Positions 12,680 to 51,900 of a stretch of DNA of 64,000 bases are shown here, piece by piece (position 1 is the first letter of the stretch; the number at the start of each line of letters is the position of its first letter). The notes under the pieces are model-generated. The model saw nothing but the letters and a program-made list of their open reading frames with translations, was not told the DNA's origin and ran no database searches. This DNA comes from Candidatus Doudnabacteria bacterium (GTDB lineage Bacteria; Patescibacteriota; Doudnabacteria; UBA920). The stretch spans positions 1,823 through 65,822 of the forward strand of contig JACRDK010000006.1 in assembly GCA_016218585.1 (NCBI GenBank). The letters run 5' to 3'. The position numbers and the translations under genes are program-made.

Positions 12680-12755
12680 CGCGGGATAGAGCAATTGGCA
12701 GCTCGCAAGGCTCATAACCTTGAGGTTCCCGGTTCGAGTCCGGGTCCCGCAACCA
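12680..12755 (+). tRNA. initiator tRNA-fMet (CAT)
   Basis: C1·A72 mismatch, anticodon loop CTCATAA. Near-identical acceptor/T-arm to E. coli tRNAfMet (…TCCCGCAACCA). Confidence 0.8.
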
Positions 12756-12818
12756 AGCTAGCACTGGAGAGTATCAAGTTTTAACTTGGTGAAAAACCAT
12801 AAAATCGTGACAGATTTT

Positions 12819-12845
12819 AGCCTTCTGTCCGAAGGCTTTTTGTTA
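12819..12845 (+). terminator. terminator agccttcTGTCCgaaggct + T-run
   Basis: 7-bp stem, T5. Confidence 0.5.
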
Positions 12846-12853
12846 AAAAATGA

Positions 12854-12930
12854 GCCGGAGTAGCTCAGTTAGTTAGAGCGTGGGACTCATAAGCCCAAGG
12901 TCAGAGGTGCAATTCCTCTCTCCGGCACCA
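12854..12930 (+). tRNA. tRNA-Met elongator or tRNA-Ile2 (anticodon CAT)
   Basis: G1-C72 paired acceptor GCCGGAG/CTCCGGC, loop CTCATAA. Identity Met vs Ile2(lysidine) not decidable from sequence. Confidence 0.75.
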
Positions 12931-13011
12931 GTGGCAAGTTACAAGTTTATCAAGAATATAAAGTTCCTAGTACTTGATAAACCTTATAACTTTTTACCTT
13001 ACAACTTATAC

Positions 13012-13084
13012 GGGACCGTAGCTCAATTGGTTACCCGCCCGAACGTACCGTTCGGTACGGGCGGGGAGCACTCGCCTGTCACGC
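13012..13084 (+). pseudogene. truncated 5' copy of tRNA-Asp (acceptor through anticodon loop) with a 32-nt GC hairpin insertion in the D-loop
   Basis: 13012-13033 and 13066-13084 are identical to 13334-13374 of the intact tRNA-Asp. Inserted cccgcccgaacgtaccgttcggtacgggcggg at 13034-13065. No T-arm follows. Confidence 0.7.
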
Positions 13085-13097
13085 TTAAAGTTAAATT

Positions 13098-13356
13098 ATG
13101 TATACTGTATACATATTAAAAGATGGCTTAGGAAATCTATATAAAGGTTTTACTAATGACTTAGAAAGGAGATTTAAGGAACACAGGCAAGGTAGAACTA
13201 AAACAACTAAAAAAAATGGAGAGTCTCGAAATAATTTATACTGAGAATTTAAATTCGAGAATTGAGGCAAGAAAAAGAGAAAAGTATTTAAAATCAGCCG
13301 CAGGAAGAAGATTCCTGAAATCAATAGGTATATGGGACCGTAGCTCAATTGGTTAG
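13098..13356 (+). pseudogene. small GIY-YIG (COG2827/YhbQ-like) nuclease gene interrupted by a frameshift in an A8 run
   Basis: N-terminal part MYTVYILKDGLGNLYKGFTNDLERRFKEHRQG matches the GIY-YIG motif. After a +1 shift at A8 (13209-13216) the frame continues ...LEIIYTENLNSRIEARKREKYLKSAAGRRFLKS, ending inside tRNA-Asp. Confidence 0.6.
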
Positions 13357-13410
13357 AGCACTCGCCTGTCACGCGAGAGGTTACGGGTTCGAGCCCCGCC
13401 GGTCCCGCCA
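13334..13410 (+). tRNA. tRNA-Asp (GTC)
   Basis: GGGACCG...CGGTCCC+G+CCA, anticodon loop CTGTCAC, T-loop GGTTCGAGCCC. Confidence 0.85.
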
Positions 13411-21811: not shown

Positions 21812-23299
21812 ATGGACTTAAATTTAACCCCAAAAAGCCCCGGTTTGCCCGGCCAAAACCCCGCCCCTTCTGACCCAACGCAAGCAAAAGAAAACGAACA
21901 GCAGGAAGGCGAGGAATATTTATTTTTTAATGTGATGCCAAAAAATAAAAGCAAGGAAAATATTGTGGAACCATCGGTAAAAATTGCGGAGCAGGTAAAA
22001 GAGCCAAACAAGTCAGGGGAGTTTTTTAAAAAATACCGCCTATACATAATTGGCGTCGTCGCGCTTTTAATATTGGCTCCATTAGTTTATTTTTTAATTG
22101 GTAAATTTGGCGGGGGAAGCGGGGAGAGCGACATTAAAATAAATACGCCTCCTCCAAAAATTAAAAATACAAGCACATCGACCCCCTTAAACTCCGAAAA
22201 CACAACAACCCCTCAGGAATGGCGCGATAAATATTTTACCGGCTGCCAAGACGAGAAAATTTGCGGCGACGCAGCAGACCCGGACCACGACGGTTTAACC
22301 AACATTCAGGAAAACAGCCTGACCACCGACCCAAATAACCCGGATTCAGACCAGGATGGACTGTCTGACGGCGATGAAGTAAATGTTTTTGGCAGCAGCC
22401 CTTCAAACAGCCATACGGGGAGAGACAGAAACTACAACGATGCTGATTACATTAAAGGAGCTTTTGACTTTTCCTCGGACAAAAGTTTGAGCCGCGAACA
22501 AATTGCTGCTCTTTCGGCAAAAATGACCCAGTTCGGCTTGCACACAACTACCATAACCACTTTGGGGGACATTCTTTTAAAGACCTATAATTTTAATGGA
22601 CAGGGGGATTCAAGCGGCAATGCAACAACCACTCCCGCAAGCGGAACAGCAACATCAACCATTAGCGGTTTTGATATGTCGGTGGAAGCAAAACAGGACA
22701 GAGACACCCAACGGTCAAGCACAATAAAAAATATTGAAAGCGCACTTGTAAAGTACTACACGGACAATAAAGCTTACCCGGCCTCCGCAAACTTTTCCGA
22801 TATGTTTCAAAAAGTTAAGCCCTACTTAAAAGTTGCCACCAATGCGCTAGACCCAATTAACCAAGACCCTTTTATTTACGGTTATGCGTCATCCAATAAC
22901 GGAGCGGACTTTACTTTGTCATTTTTCAGCGAAGTTGCCAACCAAATTATAAAAAAGCATGGGGCTGATGCACAAAAAGATTCGGCCGTCGAACAATCCG
23001 GAATTTATGACGACCAAAGGCAGAATGACTTAGAGAGCATTAGAACGGCATTGTTGCTTTACTCAAATAAAAATGTAGCGGGAACCCAGGATTATGTTTT
23101 TCCCAGCGTAGAAAAATATAAAACCGCGTTGGTGCCTGAATTTATTTCCGCTATTCCAAAAGACCCAAAAACCGGACAGGATTACGAATATAAGGTTTCG
23201 GACACATTTAACACCTTTACATTAAAAGCAGCCCTAGACAACGCCCCGAGCGGAACAAGCGGCTACTTGTGTAACCAGGAAGATTGCCGCAATTATTAA
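21812..23299 (+). CDS. membrane-anchored surface protein with thrombospondin-type-3-like Ca-binding repeats and two pilin-like C-terminal domains
   Basis: TM helix near residue 76-96. DPDHDGLTN...DPNNPDSDQDGLSDGDE repeats. Two copies of pilin-like motif (TIKNIESALVKYYTDNKAYP, LESIRTALLLYSNKNVAG). Confidence 0.55.
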   Translation: MDLNLTPKSPGLPGQNPAPSDPTQAKENEQQEGEEYLFFNVMPKNKSKENIVEPSVKIAEQVKEPNKSGEFFKKYRLYIIGVVALLILAPLVYFLIGKFGGGSGESDIKINTPPPKIKNTSTSTPLNSENTTTPQEWRDKYFTGCQDEKICGDAADPDHDGLTNIQENSLTTDPNNPDSDQDGLSDGDEVNVFGSSPSNSHTGRDRNYNDADYIKGAFDFSSDKSLSREQIAALSAKMTQFGLHTTTITTLGDILLKTYNFNGQGDSSGNATTTPASGTATSTISGFDMSVEAKQDRDTQRSSTIKNIESALVKYYTDNKAYPASANFSDMFQKVKPYLKVATNALDPINQDPFIYGYASSNNGADFTLSFFSEVANQIIKKHGADAQKDSAVEQSGIYDDQRQNDLESIRTALLLYSNKNVAGTQDYVFPSVEKYKTALVPEFISAIPKDPKTGQDYEYKVSDTFNTFTLKAALDNAPSGTSGYLCNQEDCRNY

Positions 23300-23410: not shown

Positions 23411-23836
23411 ATGAATTTTTTTAAACAATTTTTTTCTTTTAAGTCAAAAAATACTTTTACCACGCAACCGCTAATTATCGCTGCTAAGGTTATTGCCATA
23501 GAAAAACATCCCAACGCCGACCGCCTAAGAATAATCAAGCTGGATGGCGGAGGCAAAGAAATATATCCGGTAGTTTGCGGGGCATTTAATTTTAGCGAAG
23601 GCGCCATGGTAATCTTGGCCTTGCCCGGAGCGACAATTGCCCAAAATATTCATTCTGAAACTCATGAACCGTTCACTTTAGAAAAAGCAAAGATTCGCGG
23701 GACAACCAGCGAGGGCATGGTTTGCGCGGCCTTTGAACTAGGCCTTTCAAGCGAACCGGGACAGGGAATTGCCCTGCTTAAAGACAATGTAGAGCCAGGC
23801 AGCCAATTTACCCCTGAGATGATTAAAGCCTTGTAA
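23411..23836 (+). CDS. stand-alone tRNA-binding domain protein (Trbp111/CsaA/PheT-N-terminal-like)
   Basis: AKVIAIEKHPNADRLRIIKLDGGG...YPVVCGA..F..G..V..A.PGA motif of the EMAP/Myf tRNA-binding fold. Confidence 0.7.
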   Translation: MNFFKQFFSFKSKNTFTTQPLIIAAKVIAIEKHPNADRLRIIKLDGGGKEIYPVVCGAFNFSEGAMVILALPGATIAQNIHSETHEPFTLEKAKIRGTTSEGMVCAAFELGLSSEPGQGIALLKDNVEPGSQFTPEMIKAL

Positions 23837-23849
23837 AAAAGGCTTTTTT
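23825..23849 (+). terminator. terminator aaagccttGTAAAAAaggctttttt
   Basis: Overlaps stop codon of 23411 gene. Confidence 0.5.
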
Positions 23850-23894
23850 AGAATAAAATTACATCACTAATTAAGTTAATTTAAGCTGACAGAT

Positions 23895-25037
23895 ATGAAA
23901 GAACAAATTGTTATAAATACGGATGAAGAAAAACGTTTAAGGGGAGAGTTGGAAAAAAGAACCGACTTTGAAGCCCAAAGAATTAGGCGCTACTTGAGCA
24001 TGCCAGACCTCTCTCGCACCCCCGAAAGCCCAATTGCGGAAATTGTTAAAAGGATTTTAAACAGCCCGTATTTTAAAGATTTAGACACAATTCAAATTCC
24101 GGAAATAGTCCCGGCCGATATTAGCTTTGATTTATTTGACTTTGCCCCGGACCATCCGGCTAGAAGCAAGTCTGATACCTACTACGTTGATGACAAAAAC
24201 ATTCTCCGCACCCACACCACGGTTATGTGGTATTACTACTTGCAAAACGAGGAAGTAAAAAAACGCATAGCCAACAACGAAGCTGTCGGAAGTTTTTGTT
24301 TTGGCAAAGTTTATCGCAAAGATGAAATCGACAGAAAGCATATGAACGTTTTTCACCAGATTGACGGTTGGTATTTAGCGCCAAAATCTTTAAAGACCAT
24401 TACCCAGACCGACCTGGAAGAATCTTTAGGCAACATTGCCAAAGCCGTTTTCGGAGAAAACGTAAAGTACCGCTTAAACAAAGATACTTTCCCGTACACG
24501 GACCCTTCCTTAGAAATGGAAGTAGACATTAACGGCAGCTGGGTTGAAGTTGTCGGATGCGGCGTGGTGAAGGGAAGCGTGCTGGAAAAATTAGGAGTTG
24601 ATTCCAAAAATTATACCGGCTGGGCATTTGGTTTTGGCTTGGAGCGCTTGGCAATAACCAGTATGGAACTTCCGGATATCCGCCTGCTCTGGTCAGACGA
24701 CGAGCGCGTAAAAAAACAACTGGTCTTAGGACAAAAATTTGTGGAAGTTAGCAAGTATCCTCCAATTACCCGAGACATTTCTTTTATTGTAGACAATTCA
24801 TTCGTGCCAAATAATTATTTCGATTTAATTAGAGAAATTGGCGGTGACTTAATTGAACAAGTTGAGCTGCTGGATAAATATGAAAATAAAGAAAAGTTTG
24901 GCGAAGGAAAAGTAAGCTACACTTACCGGGTAGTCTACCGCAGCACCGACAGAACCCTAAAAACAGAGGAAGTAGACCCCCTGCAAAGCAAGCTCTATGA
25001 AGAAACAAAAAGCATTTATAATGCTCAATTAAGATAG
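23895..25037 (+). CDS. pheS: phenylalanine-tRNA ligase, mitochondrial-type monomeric form (PheS catalytic core + C-terminal FDX-ACB anticodon-binding domain)
   Basis: Class II motifs (FDLFDFAPDHPARSKSDTYY, LRTHTT, FCFGKVYRKDEID, GWAFGFGLERLA). C-terminal SKYPPITRDISFIV...FDLIREIGGDLIEQVELLDKY...YRVVYRSTDRTLKTEEV matches the FDX-ACB domain and is strikingly similar to human FARS2. Confidence 0.8.
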   Translation: MKEQIVINTDEEKRLRGELEKRTDFEAQRIRRYLSMPDLSRTPESPIAEIVKRILNSPYFKDLDTIQIPEIVPADISFDLFDFAPDHPARSKSDTYYVDDKNILRTHTTVMWYYYLQNEEVKKRIANNEAVGSFCFGKVYRKDEIDRKHMNVFHQIDGWYLAPKSLKTITQTDLEESLGNIAKAVFGENVKYRLNKDTFPYTDPSLEMEVDINGSWVEVVGCGVVKGSVLEKLGVDSKNYTGWAFGFGLERLAITSMELPDIRLLWSDDERVKKQLVLGQKFVEVSKYPPITRDISFIVDNSFVPNNYFDLIREIGGDLIEQVELLDKYENKEKFGEGKVSYTYRVVYRSTDRTLKTEEVDPLQSKLYEETKSIYNAQLR

Positions 25038-28779: not shown

Positions 28780-30264
28780 ATGTCGGAACGTTTAGAAGAT
28801 ATAATTGCGGCAAGAAAGCAAAAATTAGAAATTATTAAGCAAGCGGGGATAGATCCATACCCGTCTTTTAACTCGCGCACCCACACCAATCACGAAGCCT
28901 TAGACAAGTTTGATGAGCTGGGGGAACAGAGCATAACTTTAGTTGGGCGCATCCGGTCTTTCCGCGACATGGGAAAACTAATTTTCTGCCACATTGAAGA
29001 TGGCACAGCGCGTATTCAGGTTTTATTTAAATCGGACAATGTTGGCGCTGAAGAATTTAAATTTTTGTTAAAAAACTTTGACTCCGGCGATTTTATTGAA
29101 GTTACTGGCACTATATTTAAAACTAAGACCGAAGAAAAAACCCTGCAGGCTACAAGCTATAAACTTTTAGCCAAAAGCCTGCGCCCCCTGCCTTCCGAAC
29201 ACTATGGGCTGGAAGATGAAGAAATAAAATTGCGCAAACGCTATTTGGATATTTTAATGAATCCGGAAGTTAAAGATATATTTATTAAAAAGAACAAGTT
29301 TTGGTCCGCAATGCGTTCGTTCTTAGTGCAAAAGGGCTTCCTGGAGCTGGAAATGCCTGTTTTAGAGGCAGTGCCGGGCGGAGCCGAAGCCGAACCATTC
29401 ATTACTCATCATAACGCGTTAGACCGCGATTTTTATCTTAGGATTAGTTTGGAACTACCCTTAAAAAAAATGCTGGTTGCCGGTTATGAAAAAGTTTTTG
29501 AAATTGGCCGCATTTTCCGCAACGAAGGAATCTCGCCGGAACATTTGCAGGACTACACGCAAATGGAATTTTACTGGGCCTATGGCGATTTTGAAAAATT
29601 GATGGATATGGTTCAGGAAATGTACCAGCACATAATTCAAGAAACTTTTGGTACTTTAGAAATTACTTACCAAGGGACAAAAATAAACTGGGGCGGCAAT
29701 TGGCCGCGCGTGGATTATTTTGAAATCTTTAAAAAGCATACAGGCATAGATTTAAACACAGCAACCGAACAAGAACTAAAGGCTTACGCTGACAAAAAGC
29801 ATATTAAGTATGAAGAGTTTGCGGGCAAAGGCCGCGTGACTGATTTAATTTTTAAAAAGACTATCCGCATTCTGCCGGAAGTTGCCACTCAGCCAAGCTT
29901 TTTAATTAATCAGCCGATTGAGTTAGAGCCGTTGGCAAAACGCGACCCAAAAAATCCTAAAATGGTTCAACGTATGCAAATATTAGCGTGCGGCTCTGAG
30001 CTGGGCAAAGGTTTTGGGGAATTAAATGATCCGGTTGACCAACGCTCCCGCTTTGACGAGCAAATGAAACTTAGGCAAGCAGGGGATGGGGAAGCCCAAA
30101 TGCTCGACGAAGACTACGTGGAAGCAATGGAATACGGCATGCCTCCGGCAGCCGGTTTTGGAATTTCTGAACGCTTGTTTGCAGTTTTAATGGACCGCTC
30201 AATCCGCGAAACCGTCATCTTCCCGCCAATGAAAGAAAAAAACCGATCCGAATCTTCGAATTAA
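28780..30264 (+). CDS. lysS: lysine-tRNA ligase (class II)
   Basis: OB-fold N-terminus, class II motifs (FRNEGIS, GxGxGxERL-like GFGISERL). Confidence 0.9.
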   Translation: MSERLEDIIAARKQKLEIIKQAGIDPYPSFNSRTHTNHEALDKFDELGEQSITLVGRIRSFRDMGKLIFCHIEDGTARIQVLFKSDNVGAEEFKFLLKNFDSGDFIEVTGTIFKTKTEEKTLQATSYKLLAKSLRPLPSEHYGLEDEEIKLRKRYLDILMNPEVKDIFIKKNKFWSAMRSFLVQKGFLELEMPVLEAVPGGAEAEPFITHHNALDRDFYLRISLELPLKKMLVAGYEKVFEIGRIFRNEGISPEHLQDYTQMEFYWAYGDFEKLMDMVQEMYQHIIQETFGTLEITYQGTKINWGGNWPRVDYFEIFKKHTGIDLNTATEQELKAYADKKHIKYEEFAGKGRVTDLIFKKTIRILPEVATQPSFLINQPIELEPLAKRDPKNPKMVQRMQILACGSELGKGFGELNDPVDQRSRFDEQMKLRQAGDGEAQMLDEDYVEAMEYGMPPAAGFGISERLFAVLMDRSIRETVIFPPMKEKNRSESSN

Positions 30265-30351: not shown

Positions 30352-31680
30352 ATGTTGGACATAAAATTTGTTCGCGATAACCAAGAAATTGTAAAGAAAG
30401 CCATTGCCGATAAGCGCGTTGATTTAAATCTCGACGAGTTGTTGGATTTAGATTCCAAAAGGCGCGACCTGCTCACTGAACTGGAAAGCCTGCAGGCAAC
30501 CAAGAATGCCGTTTCCAAAAGCATTCCTCAGTTATCCGAAGAAGAAAAAAAGGTGAAATTTTTGGAGATGAAAGAAGTGGATGAGAAATCCAAAGTCTTA
30601 AAAGACGAGCTAAAACCAATTTTGGAAAATTACGACAGGCTTATTGCTTTAACGCCAAACATTCCAAGCCCCGAGACCCCAATCGGCAAAGATTCTTCCG
30701 GCAACATTCCTTGGCGTTATTGGAACAGCACGCTCGGAGTTGTTGACCCTACCAAAGAGCCGGAAAAAGTTGCGGAGATTCCCGCTAAGTTTAATTTTAC
30801 AATAAAAGACCATATTGCTTTAGGCAAAGATTTAGATTTAATAGATACTGAGACCGGGGTTAAAACTTCCGGCTTCCGCGGATATTATTTAAAAAATGAA
30901 GCCGTGTTAATGCAGTACGGCCTAATTTGGCTTGCATTGAAAAAAATGCAGGAAAAAGGCTTTACGCTCATGGTACCGCCGGTGCTGGTGCGCGAGTTTG
31001 CCTTGTTTGGCAGCGGACACTTTCCGGCCGGCCGCGATGAAATATATAAAATTGCCAACACCGATGAAAAAGACCAAATATATTTAGCCGGCACATCCGA
31101 ACCTTCTTTGCTCGCGTATTATGAAGGAAAAACGTTAACCGAAAAAGATCTGCCAATTAAAGTTTGCGGCGTTTCTTCCTGCTATCGCAGCGAAGTAGGC
31201 TCTTACGGCAAAGACACCCGGGGCATTTATCGCATCCACGAATTTATGAAAGTGGAACAGGTGGTTATGTGTAAAGCGGAAACCGCCGAGAGCGACCAGT
31301 GGTTGGAAACAATGAGAGAAATTGCCGAAGGCATGCTGCAAGACTTAAAACTGCCATACCGCGTACTAAATATCTGTACCGGGGATATGGGAGCCGGCAA
31401 GTATAAAATGTACGACATTGAAACCTGGATGCCTTCTAGGAACGACTTTGGCGAAACCCACTCGGATTCAAACCTTACCGACTGGCAGGCAAGAAGGCTG
31501 AATATAAAGTACAAAGACAAACAGGGCAAGACCAAATATGTTTATACCCTAAACAACACTGTCATTGCTTCCCCCCGCATCTTAATTGCCATTTTAGAAA
31601 ATTACCAGCAAGCCGACGGCAGCATTCTGGTCCCGGAAGTTTTAAAACCATACATTGGCAAAGACGTAATTAAGAAATGA
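30352..31680 (+). CDS. serS: serine-tRNA ligase
   Basis: N-terminal coiled-coil arm, class II motifs (FRGYYLK, GSGHFP, motif 3 GTSEPS...). Confidence 0.9.
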   Translation: MLDIKFVRDNQEIVKKAIADKRVDLNLDELLDLDSKRRDLLTELESLQATKNAVSKSIPQLSEEEKKVKFLEMKEVDEKSKVLKDELKPILENYDRLIALTPNIPSPETPIGKDSSGNIPWRYWNSTLGVVDPTKEPEKVAEIPAKFNFTIKDHIALGKDLDLIDTETGVKTSGFRGYYLKNEAVLMQYGLIWLALKKMQEKGFTLMVPPVLVREFALFGSGHFPAGRDEIYKIANTDEKDQIYLAGTSEPSLLAYYEGKTLTEKDLPIKVCGVSSCYRSEVGSYGKDTRGIYRIHEFMKVEQVVMCKAETAESDQWLETMREIAEGMLQDLKLPYRVLNICTGDMGAGKYKMYDIETWMPSRNDFGETHSDSNLTDWQARRLNIKYKDKQGKTKYVYTLNNTVIASPRILIAILENYQQADGSILVPEVLKPYIGKDVIKK

Positions 31681-50079: not shown

Positions 50080-51900
50080 TTATTTCTTTTTTTCAATCTC
50101 TAATTTTAATTTTTCCGCAAATTTCTTTAGCGCCATTGTGCCCAAATCTTTTCCTTCCCGGCTTCTAATAGCAATCTTTTTAGCTTTAACTTCTTTCTCG
50201 CCCAAAATAATTTGGTACGGAATTTTTTGCATGCTGGCCTCGCGGATTTTTTTACCAACACTTTCATCGCGGTCGTCCAGTTCTATTCTTAACTCTTCAT
50301 TCAAAATTCCTAATTCTTTTTGTACTTTTTTGGCATAAGCATTCTGTTTTTTGCTAATTGGCAAAATTGCCACTTGAACAGGGGAGAGCCACAACGGAAA
50401 GGCTCCGGCATAGTGTTCAATCAGCAATCCAATAAACCGCTCCATAGAACCATAAATTACGCGATGTACGACCACAGGAGTTTTTCGAGAACCATCAGCG
50501 GCAATGTATTCCAAACCGAAACGCTTAGGCTGCTGGAAATCTAATTGTATTGTTCCAGTCTGCCACTCGCGGCCCAAAGCATCTTTCATTAAAATATCAA
50601 TCTTCGGTCCGTAAAATGCCCCATCTCCTTCTTCTATAAAATATTTCACCCCAGATTTTTCCAAAATTCTTTTAAGCGCACTTTCAGCCTTATTCCAAGT
50701 TTCAATGTCCCCTAAAAACCCTTCTGGCCTAGTTCCTAAACGGAAATGATATTCCATTTTAAAAATTCCATAAAACAGTTTGGCAATTTTAAATATCTCA
50801 CCAAACTCGTCTTCAATCATCTCCTCGGTAATAAAGTTATGTGAATCATCTTGCCTAAAAGATCTAACTCGCAACAGCCCATTAAGTGTTCCAGCCAGCT
50901 CATAGCGATGTAAAATATCTGTATCAGAAAATCTTAATGGCAAATCTTTATAAGATCGTAGTTTTGAGCCAAAAACCAGCATAGCGTTTGGGCAATTCAT
51001 GGCTTTTACCCCATAAACATCATTTTCCCCCATATCAGCAATAAACATATTCTCTTTGTAGTGATCCCAATGCCCTGAAGTTTCCCAAAGCTCTTTTTTG
51101 TTAACTAGGGGCGCGGAAATTTCCAGGTAACCGCGCTTCCTGTGCTCTTTGCGCCAGAATTCAAGTAAACCATTAAATACCACCATACCTTTAGGCAACC
51201 AATATGGCTCACCAGGAGCCGTTGGGTGGAACATAAACAAATCTAACTTTGGCCCCAAGATTTTGTGGTCTCTTTTCTCTGCTTCTTCTAGCTGGTGAAG
51301 ATACTCAGCCATTTCTTCTTTTGTTTCAAACGCCAAACCGTAGATGCGCTGCATTTGCGGATTTTTTTGGTCGCCGCGCCAGTACGCTCCTGAAGTTTTG
51401 CTTAATTTAAAAGCATCTGTTTTTATTTGTGAAGTATTTTCCACATGTCCGCCACGGCACAAATCTATAAACTTTCCTGTTTTATAAAGCGAGACCTTGT
51501 CTATGCCGGAAGATGTCGATTTGTCTAATTCCTGATTCTTAATTCCTGATTCCTGATTCAATACGGCATCTGCTTTGGTTGTGCCAAACTTTTCTATGTC
51601 TTCAATCAACTGAATTTTAAACGGCTGGTTTTGCCCTTTAAAAAATTCCTTTGCTTCGGCAGTGCTTTGCTCAATTCTTTCAAAATCAAGCTTAGACTGG
51701 ACTAGCGCGCGCATTCTTTTTTCCAGTTTAGATAAATCATCTGGGGTTAGAGAACGGGGGAGCAGGAAATCATAAAAAAATCCGTTGTCTATAACCGGGC
51801 CAACGCCAAGCTGAGCCTTTGGAAACATTTCCACAACCGCGGAAGCGAGTATGTGGGCTAACGAATGGCGGATATTGTGCAGTTTTTCTTGTTTGTCCAT
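50080..51900 (-). CDS. thrS: threonine-tRNA ligase
   Basis: Editing-domain HSLAHIL, class II motifs, anticodon-binding C-terminus. Confidence 0.9.
   Translation of the reverse strand: MDKQEKLHNIRHSLAHILASAVVEMFPKAQLGVGPVIDNGFFYDFLLPRSLTPDDLSKLEKRMRALVQSKLDFERIEQSTAEAKEFFKGQNQPFKIQLIEDIEKFGTTKADAVLNQESGIKNQELDKSTSSGIDKVSLYKTGKFIDLCRGGHVENTSQIKTDAFKLSKTSGAYWRGDQKNPQMQRIYGLAFETKEEMAEYLHQLEEAEKRDHKILGPKLDLFMFHPTAPGEPYWLPKGMVVFNGLLEFWRKEHRKRGYLEISAPLVNKKELWETSGHWDHYKENMFIADMGENDVYGVKAMNCPNAMLVFGSKLRSYKDLPLRFSDTDILHRYELAGTLNGLLRVRSFRQDDSHNFITEEMIEDEFGEIFKIAKLFYGIFKMEYHFRLGTRPEGFLGDIETWNKAESALKRILEKSGVKYFIEEGDGAFYGPKIDILMKDALGREWQTGTIQLDFQQPKRFGLEYIAADGSRKTPVVVHRVIYGSMERFIGLLIEHYAGAFPLWLSPVQVAILPISKKQNAYAKKVQKELGILNEELRIELDDRDESVGKKIREASMQKIPYQIILGEKEVKAKKIAIRSREGKDLGTMALKKFAEKLKLEIEKKK

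Follow-up and report, generated by a model that had tools for sequence, protein, structure and literature searches.

A probable single-chain, editing-free phenylalanyl-tRNA synthetase in Parcubacteria and its B2-type partner protein in Doudnabacteria-like lineages

We analyzed a 64-kb stretch of DNA from a Candidatus Doudnabacteria metagenome-assembled genome (MAG; contig JACRDK010000006.1), called the window below, and in particular two co-oriented open reading frames (ORFs) on its + strand, which lie exactly where an earlier note, made from the sequence letters, had placed them. The first (23411..23836) encodes a protein of 141 amino acids (aa) with a tRNA-binding domain of the B2 type, and the second (23895..25037) a 380-aa relative of PheS, the alpha subunit of phenylalanyl-tRNA synthetase (PheRS). 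We consider it likely that the second gene encodes the housekeeping PheRS of its host, a single-chain enzyme free of editing that has taken the place of the (alpha-beta)2 form across a large parcubacterial clade to which Doudnabacteria belong, with the B2 protein as an auxiliary in a subclade. We infer that the enzyme is monomeric, that the B2 protein assists it and that pheS and pheT have been lost genome-wide. Reference works give the (alpha-beta)2 heterotetramer as the form of cytoplasmic PheRS throughout the three domains of life, and treat the single-chain form as a peculiarity of organelles. AARS Online distinguishes PheRS-A, PheRS-B and PheRS-M, and the last is exemplified only by FARS2/3CMQ. 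The architecture is thus known and the sequences are public. The novelty lies in such an enzyme apparently serving a large bacterial clade as its only cytoplasmic PheRS, in its separate position in the tree, and in its B2 partner or fusion.

The domain structure of the 380-aa protein is clear. A Pfam scan finds the class-II PheS catalytic core (PF01409, E 1e-52) at aa 48-275 (24036..24719), followed by a ferredoxin-fold anticodon-binding (FDX-ACB) domain, the B8 domain of PheT (PF03147, E 2e-23), at aa 286-380 (24750..25034, with the stop codon at 25035-25037); it gives no hit to the N-terminal PheS domain. Residues 46-275 align with residues 108-326 of E. coli PheS. The N-terminal segment (aa 1-47, 23895..24035) is helical and replaces the coiled coil of about 100 aa found in bacterial PheS: of the helices predicted at residues 10-20, 25-35 and 46-55, the first two lie in the roughly 45 residues that precede the core. 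The claim of the earlier note that the long coiled coil is missing is therefore correct, and so is its assignment of the C-terminus to an FDX-ACB domain. It had also proposed searches with three Pfam profiles, and all three were found, PF01409 and PF03147 in the 380-aa protein and PF01588 in the 141-aa protein.

Among sequences with known structures, the top match of the 380-aa protein is human mitochondrial PheRS (195 bits, E 1e-56). The alignment covers both the core and the FDX-ACB domain and takes in the DIRLLWSDDERVKKQ / DIRLFWCEDERFLKQ stretch, while the best bacterial PheS alpha chain reaches 119 bits and the C-termini of PheT about 33 bits; the resemblance to FARS2 that had been pointed out from the sequence is thereby borne out. 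An AlphaFold2 model of the protein (mean predicted local distance difference test score, pLDDT, 87.1; predicted TM-score, pTM, 0.78) can be superimposed on human mitochondrial PheRS (3cmq/5mgh) over 388 columns with a TM-score of 0.73 and E of about 1e-33, and in the same comparison bacterial PheS chains cover the core only. The model fits the closed apo state (3cmq, TM-score 0.73) better than the open tRNA-bound state (3tup, TM-score 0.58). Its FDX-ACB domain is predicted to have the order beta-alpha-beta-beta-alpha-beta and to be packed as in the closed state of the human enzyme.

The active site points to phenylalanine as the substrate. E. coli PheS residues F248, F250, T251, A294, Q208 and E210 correspond to F199, Y201, T202, A244, Q155 and D157 of the window enzyme. 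F199, T202, A244, Q155, H107 and the motif-2 arginine are kept, and three positions are changed conservatively compared to canonical PheRS: Y201 (the second Phe to Tyr), D157 (Glu to Asp) and T109 (Ser to Thr). The stretches DHPARS and LRTHTT, the motif-2 stretches GKVYRKD and FHQIDG, the pocket strand FPYTDPS and the motif-3 stretch GWAFGFGLERL fit the canonical and mitochondrial patterns with conservative changes only. They are also nearly invariant in the family. Of 120 homologues, 117-118 have an unchanged FHQIDG, and the same holds for LRTHTT and for GWAFGFGLER; GKVYRKD is unchanged in 115 of them and DHPARS in 98, and the pocket strand FPYT.PSLE is present in all 120, its variable residue being D in 100. 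From these residues, the enzyme is probably specific for Phe.

If correct, the enzyme would work as follows. The PheS core would form Phe-AMP and transfer Phe to tRNA-Phe, while the fused FDX-ACB domain would read the GAA anticodon (G34-A35-A36) after swinging from a closed to an open position, presumably as in human mitochondrial PheRS. By homology to the latter, it would act as a monomer without a beta subunit. Since without a beta subunit there is no B3/B4 editing site, we propose that Phe is discriminated from Tyr by the active site alone. The selectivity of the pocket, rather than B3/B4 hydrolysis, would exclude Tyr, and Y201, D157 and T109 may contribute to this.

It is useful to compare this system with known PheRS enzymes. 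With mitochondrial PheRS (FARS2, yeast MSF1; PheRS-M; TIGR00469) the window enzyme shares a single chain made of a PheS core and a C-terminal FDX-ACB domain, the lack of an editing domain, some 30% identity along the whole chain, motifs 2 and 3, the Phe-pocket residues and a DIRL(F/L)W linker. However, it is bacterial and cytoplasmic, belongs to a separate clade and falls under the TIGR00469 cut-off; FARS2 has an insertion between its motifs 2 and 3, absent from the window enzyme, that splits the alignment in two, and the window enzyme has Tyr, Asp and Thr at the three pocket positions. A B2-type partner or fusion occurs in one bacterial subclade and in none of the mitochondrial enzymes. Canonical bacterial PheRS is related through its catalytic core, with 33% identity in the case of E. 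coli PheS, and through the B2 and B8 domains of PheT, but the window system is devoid of the alpha coiled coil, B1, the B3/B4 editing domain, B5 and B6/7. Its B8 is in cis on the catalytic chain, and its B2 is a separate 141-aa protein encoded upstream instead of a part of a downstream pheT.

The distribution of the gene is that of a core gene of a large bacterial group. A scan of genome collections finds relatives in at least 303 GTDB species genomes of Parcubacteria and Doudnabacteria. The locus-level GTDB figures given here refer to the best 80 of these (64-89% identity to the window enzyme), which belong to Doudna-, Nomura-, Zambryski-, Giovannoni- and Yanofskybacteria and other Parcubacteria/Paceibacteria. 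The enzyme gene usually adjoins gyrB, as it does in 64 fetched loci. The conserved order is RmuC, NYN, PIN, UvrD/PDDEXK, two unknown genes, B2, PheRS, gyrB, greA, lysS and serS, and it is seen on contigs as long as 811 kb (JAXOUH010030583.1) and 949 kb (ERZ25039512 contig_17402). Compared to the proteins of the window, the enzyme has a mean identity of 73% where GyrB from the same loci has 64%; in the comparison with LysRS (73%) and SerRS (70%) it has 79% and is the most conserved. In the most distant lineages GyrB goes down to 52-58% and the enzyme is still at 66-75%. Conservation above that of GyrB, LysRS and SerRS is the pattern expected of a vertically inherited, strongly constrained core gene. 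The suggestion that such an arrangement is unusual in a bacterium therefore holds for bacteria generally, but not within this large clade of Parcubacteria, where it is the norm.

An exhaustive search of 1.84 billion representative proteins returned only 237 at E <= 1e-30. We built a bootstrapped neighbor-joining tree from 231 columns of the catalytic core with five canonical PheS as outgroups. All single-chain proteins bearing FDX-ACB are together against canonical PheS (100%), and the family of the Candidate Phyla Radiation (CPR) forms a monophyletic group (100%). The latter is joined at 92% by P0243/P0249, P0244 (from an Oligoflexia MAG) and P0246, while the mitochondrial forms group with short forms from very large virus-like contigs at 84%. 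Judged by this tree, the window enzyme belongs to a bacterial branch of its own within the superfamily of single-chain PheRS.

Both the synteny and the tree bear on the idea that the gene is a eukaryotic organelle-type sequence that entered the data by contamination or the genome by recent transfer. Such an origin would agree with human FARS2 being the best structural match, and with the fact that the closest 50% representative, P0241 (61% identical to the window enzyme), just passes the mitochondrial profile pheS_mito at 264.3. But the gene stands among bacterial housekeeping genes (UvrD, gyrB, greA, lysS, serS) on long contigs, its identity tracks the divergence of GyrB, and the CPR clade lies outside the clade of mitochondrial and viral forms and is not nested in eukaryotes. 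A bacterial synteny conserved in hundreds of Patescibacteria genomes, together with a clade of its own, led us to reject organelle contamination, whose probability we regard as negligible. The earlier note had named this phylogenetic comparison as a check on itself, and the contamination it warned of was not upheld.

Another line of evidence concerns the missing subunit. When E. coli PheT was compared to the 64-kb window by tblastn, only two of its domains were found: its residues 45-130 (B2) matched the 141-aa ORF and its residues 699-794 (B8) matched the last part of the 380-aa ORF, with no trace of B1, B3/B4, B5 or B6/7. None of the ten longest other ORFs of the window is PheT; these longest ORFs include ATP synthase alpha, a LysRS-type protein, SerRS, ThrRS, DnaE, glycosyltransferases and an antiporter. 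The absence of pheT from the neighborhood, as noted earlier, is thus confirmed. In 87 related loci (1.4 Mb), tblastn with E. coli PheT and PheS finds B2 and B8 as the sole parts of PheT, no PheT core domain, and one PheS-like gene per locus. The cluster infC-rpmI-rplT often precedes pheST; it is found neither in the window nor in any of the related loci. No gene for tRNA-Phe lies near the enzyme gene in 53 loci.

Published counts agree with a single gene. According to He et al. 2021 (PMC7906910, SI Table 2), the PheRS-alpha count is 1 in each of four MAGs that carry this gene: Nomurabacteria_41_10 (JACPLQ, L033), Doudnabacteria_47_31 (JACQPC, L041), Yanofskybacteria_42_10 (JACOZW, L064), which is 100% complete, and Parcubacteria_45_229 (JACQLN, L062). 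The table likewise gives a count of 1 for further MAGs of Doudnabacteria and Parcubacteria. The 43-gene marker set of the study has no entry for the beta subunit, and its KEGG step tables mirror module-level calls and are silent on K01890.

The 141-aa protein is the other half of the system in the lineages closest to the window. It matches PF01588 (tRNA_bind) with E 1.7e-16 and 60.5 bits against a gathering score of 27, the core of the match being aa 23-131 (23477-23803), and it scores 104 bits against positions 46-151 of the NCBIfam model pheT_bact. Among sequences with known structures it comes closest to B2 from E. coli-type PheT (55 bits), followed by the YtpR-like 3bu2 (52 bits) and, far behind, the Trbp111/CsaA types (about 26 bits). 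It stays below the cut-offs of the stand-alone families (YtpR, 79 vs 100; TapR, 45.5 vs 120; PRK10089, 23.5 vs 150). The earlier reading of the upstream gene as a tRNA-binding domain and nothing else was right, then, with B2 of PheT as its closest relative. The protein appears to derive from the B2 domain of PheT and may be what is left of the lost second subunit. Its OB fold (PF01588) is that of known tRNA-binding cofactors (Trbp111, CsaA/YgjH, YtpR, TapR, the C-terminal domain of MetRS, Arc1p/EMAPII), and its role as a tRNA-binding module in trans or fused would be like theirs. It differs from them in being nearest to PheT B2, in scoring below the YtpR and TapR cut-offs and in being paired specifically with PheRS. 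Most likely it is an auxiliary module that would raise the affinity for tRNA, acting in trans or, where fused, in cis, much as Trbp111-type domains assist other synthetases.

In 23 loci the gene next upstream of the enzyme gene encodes a B2 homologue. In the window the two genes are separated by a spacer of 58 nt (23837..23894, +), which has no equivalent in fused homologues. In 21 related loci the spacer measures 10-221 nt, in one it is 664 nt, and in L008 there is a single ORF. In P0020, P0026 and P0036 (504-506 aa) a B2 domain is joined by a short linker to the N-terminus of the enzyme, and the fused P0026 gene occupies the identical syntenic slot to the two-gene arrangement. Such a fusion in place argues for a functional link between the two proteins. 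The B2 protein is less conserved than the enzyme (63% vs 79% identity). Its gene is present in 20 of the 80 GTDB loci, mostly those nearest to the window, and the partner is restricted to a Doudnabacteria-like subclade, in which it is sometimes fused.

Searches for regulatory elements at the locus were negative: neither an Rfam leader nor a T-box was found, and a scan of the locus for promoters and terminators gave no signal exceeding that of shuffled sequence. A short hairpin rich in A+T (AAAGCCTT / AAGGCTTT), with a run of T after it, lies at 23823-23850 of the window, where it overlaps the B2 stop codon; the scan for terminators passed it over.

Several observations weigh against the enzyme being a housekeeping PheRS with a B2 partner, and some of them would fit an accessory PheS paralogue, a "mystery ligase" like SrmL, which acts beside normal PheS and PheT and ligates another amino acid or another acceptor. 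The top NCBIfam match of the 380-aa protein is SrmL (NF051887), at 248.5 bits, although the cut-off of 300 is missed. It also misses the cut-offs of pheS_mito (233.5 vs 258.35) and canonical pheS (TIGR00468; 155.5 vs 237.45). In the neighbor-joining tree the group containing the CPR family joins with SrmL at 70% bootstrap. Three pocket positions depart from canonical PheRS, and this may mean an altered specificity. The larger-genome relatives P0244 and P0246 have two-component, transporter and glycosidase genes as neighbors, a non-housekeeping context, and may represent additional copies there; the surroundings of P0249 are compact and of the housekeeping type. The search for pheS and pheT covered the window and the 87 related loci, so a canonical pheS-pheT pair could lie elsewhere in the source MAG, and the negative result for 1.4 Mb is a weak one, as only about two matches would be expected were pheT randomly placed in every genome. 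The single-copy argument presumes that the published annotation-based marker call recognizes the single-chain form. As to the partner, 60 of the 80 GTDB loci have no B2 gene within 10 kb, meaning that the family as a whole does not require it. The upstream partner pointed out in the earlier note belongs to the Doudnabacteria-like subclade, not to the whole family.

The pocket speaks against an accessory ligase. True members of SrmL score 359-415 bits (P0357 359 bits, P0366 415 bits). P0366, P0357, P0370 and P0387 retain the PheS core and the FDX-ACB domain, so to speak the same frame, but their pocket positions are replaced (HPYTxNG, PHQxD[ILV]W, GLA[SLM]G) and DHPxR/DT is lost. The examples HPYTLNG, PHQVDIW and GLASGFG can be set against FPYTDPS, FHQIDG and GWAFGFG of the window enzyme, in which the substitutions diagnostic of SrmL are not present. 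The replaced Phe-pocket residues suggest a different amino-acid substrate for SrmL. The window family is similar to SrmL in its two-domain architecture, its prokaryotic hosts and its neighboring branch in the tree; it differs in having kept the pocket motifs that are rewired in SrmL and in its score below the SrmL cut-off. Conservation above GyrB, LysRS and SerRS and synteny across the radiation are also not what one expects of an accessory gene, nor is the single PheS-type gene in four carrier MAGs, one of them complete. CPR genomes measure about 0.5-1 Mb and have little redundancy. We consider an accessory paralogue unlikely on balance. No published description of SrmL or of a bacterial single-chain PheRS was found, a query for SrmL and TapR being dominated by plant gene names.

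It is less likely still that the 380-aa protein is the catalytic subunit of a heteromeric PheRS, with a beta-like partner that escaped notice through its divergence or its distance on the genome. The limited reach of the pheT search leaves room for such a partner, and Mukai et al. 2017 reported that many CPR PheRS beta subunits are without B2, so a B2-less beta subunit combined with a separate B2 protein is conceivable. The same authors noted that other synthetases of CPR bacteria carry appended domains like B2. Yet B8, the anticodon-binding domain of the beta subunit, is already in cis on the enzyme, and the alpha coiled coil, which contacts tRNA and the beta subunit in (alpha-beta)2 enzymes, is missing. 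B2 fuses to the enzyme and not to a beta subunit, and 1.4 Mb of related loci hold no fragment of a PheT core. The CPR beta subunit that serves as the example of the B2-less form is, we presume from its accession series, probably of a Microgenomates lineage outside this clade. A single-chain housekeeping PheRS remains the reading that we favor.

The missed cut-offs have practical consequences. The 380-aa protein is identical to HY918_01390 and the 141-aa protein to HY918_01385 of the Candidatus Doudnabacteria MAG. Both are labeled "hypothetical" at NCBI, in the case of the enzyme because it misses every curated PheRS cut-off (pheS, pheS_mito) and that of SrmL too; JGI names homologues "PheRS alpha chain" and "beta chain". 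For the same reason marker sets such as TIGR00468/TIGR00472 would score PheRS as missing, and estimates of genome completeness would be lowered.

A few observations on the surroundings of the gene can be added. A 495-aa protein is encoded at 21812-23299 (+) of the window, and its sole domain match, a weak one, is to the bacterial TSP3 repeat. In every syntenic locus its gene comes just before that of B2, with the protein conserved at 43-60% identity. Other synthetases of the window are a class-IIb LysRS-type protein (28780-30264) and SerRS (30352-31680), just downstream of gyrB-greA and kept at this position in syntenic loci, and ThrRS (50080-51900, - strand) further on. A cluster of tRNA-Met, tRNA-Met and tRNA-Asp genes lies at 12680-13410, 10 kb upstream of the PheRS gene. 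In many distant Parcubacteria this cluster is directly upstream of the PheRS gene (for example L039 8831-9974, L068 5722-9656, L074 8391-9400, L087 9700-9931). This suggests that the order tRNA cluster-PheRS-gyrB is old and that a block from RmuC through UvrD to B2 was inserted in the Doudnabacteria-like lineage.

Short single-chain PheRS genes, encoding 348-360 aa with a PheS core and FDX-ACB, also occur on very large contigs: at L089 7001-8047 (ENA ERZ19027398 scaffold_19, 340,874 bp), L090 7001-8083 (JGI Ga0137716_10000049, 252,530 bp) and L098 6001-7041 (LR745206.1, uncultured phage, 634,780 bp). Their neighbors are mostly small unannotated ORFs, along with PhageMetallopep, PcfJ, a SNF2 helicase, thymidine kinase and ankyrin repeats, and this suggests huge phages or giant viruses. 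The pheS_mito cut-off is passed by P0258, which represents the 90%-identity cluster that includes the L089 protein P0401. Both P0258 and P0346 group with mitochondrial sequences of eukaryotes, and the LR745206 copy groups with SrmL (90% bootstrap). A different case is Ruminococcus phage NatCom_28775 (PV036440.1, L097), deposited as "complete", which has a canonical-looking PheS of 350 aa at 505-1557 and a long ORF starting at 1572 in the position of pheT, both annotated as hypothetical.

A further suggestion is speculative, and we would sooner doubt it than rely on it. Parcubacteria could be the first cellular lineage known to base cytoplasmic translation wholly on a single-chain, editing-free PheRS, and this bacterial branch, along with the related forms on contigs of huge phages or giant viruses, would then indicate that the "mitochondrial" architecture arose long ago in prokaryotes or viruses and passed from there to eukaryotes, rather than being assembled in eukaryotes from an alphaproteobacterial (alpha-beta)2 enzyme. 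Mitochondrial RNA polymerase and the mitochondrial replicative helicase are of phage ancestry, and if the suggestion is true, the origin of mitochondrial PheRS would parallel theirs.

The family provides a prokaryotic comparator for the origin of mitochondrial PheRS. It also offers a compact scaffold of 380 aa, which grows to some 505 aa in the natural fusion to B2 and may be of use in engineering. If the proposed function is correct, a free-living or episymbiotic cell can do without the editing of Tyr and meta-tyrosine, that is, without B3/B4 proofreading.

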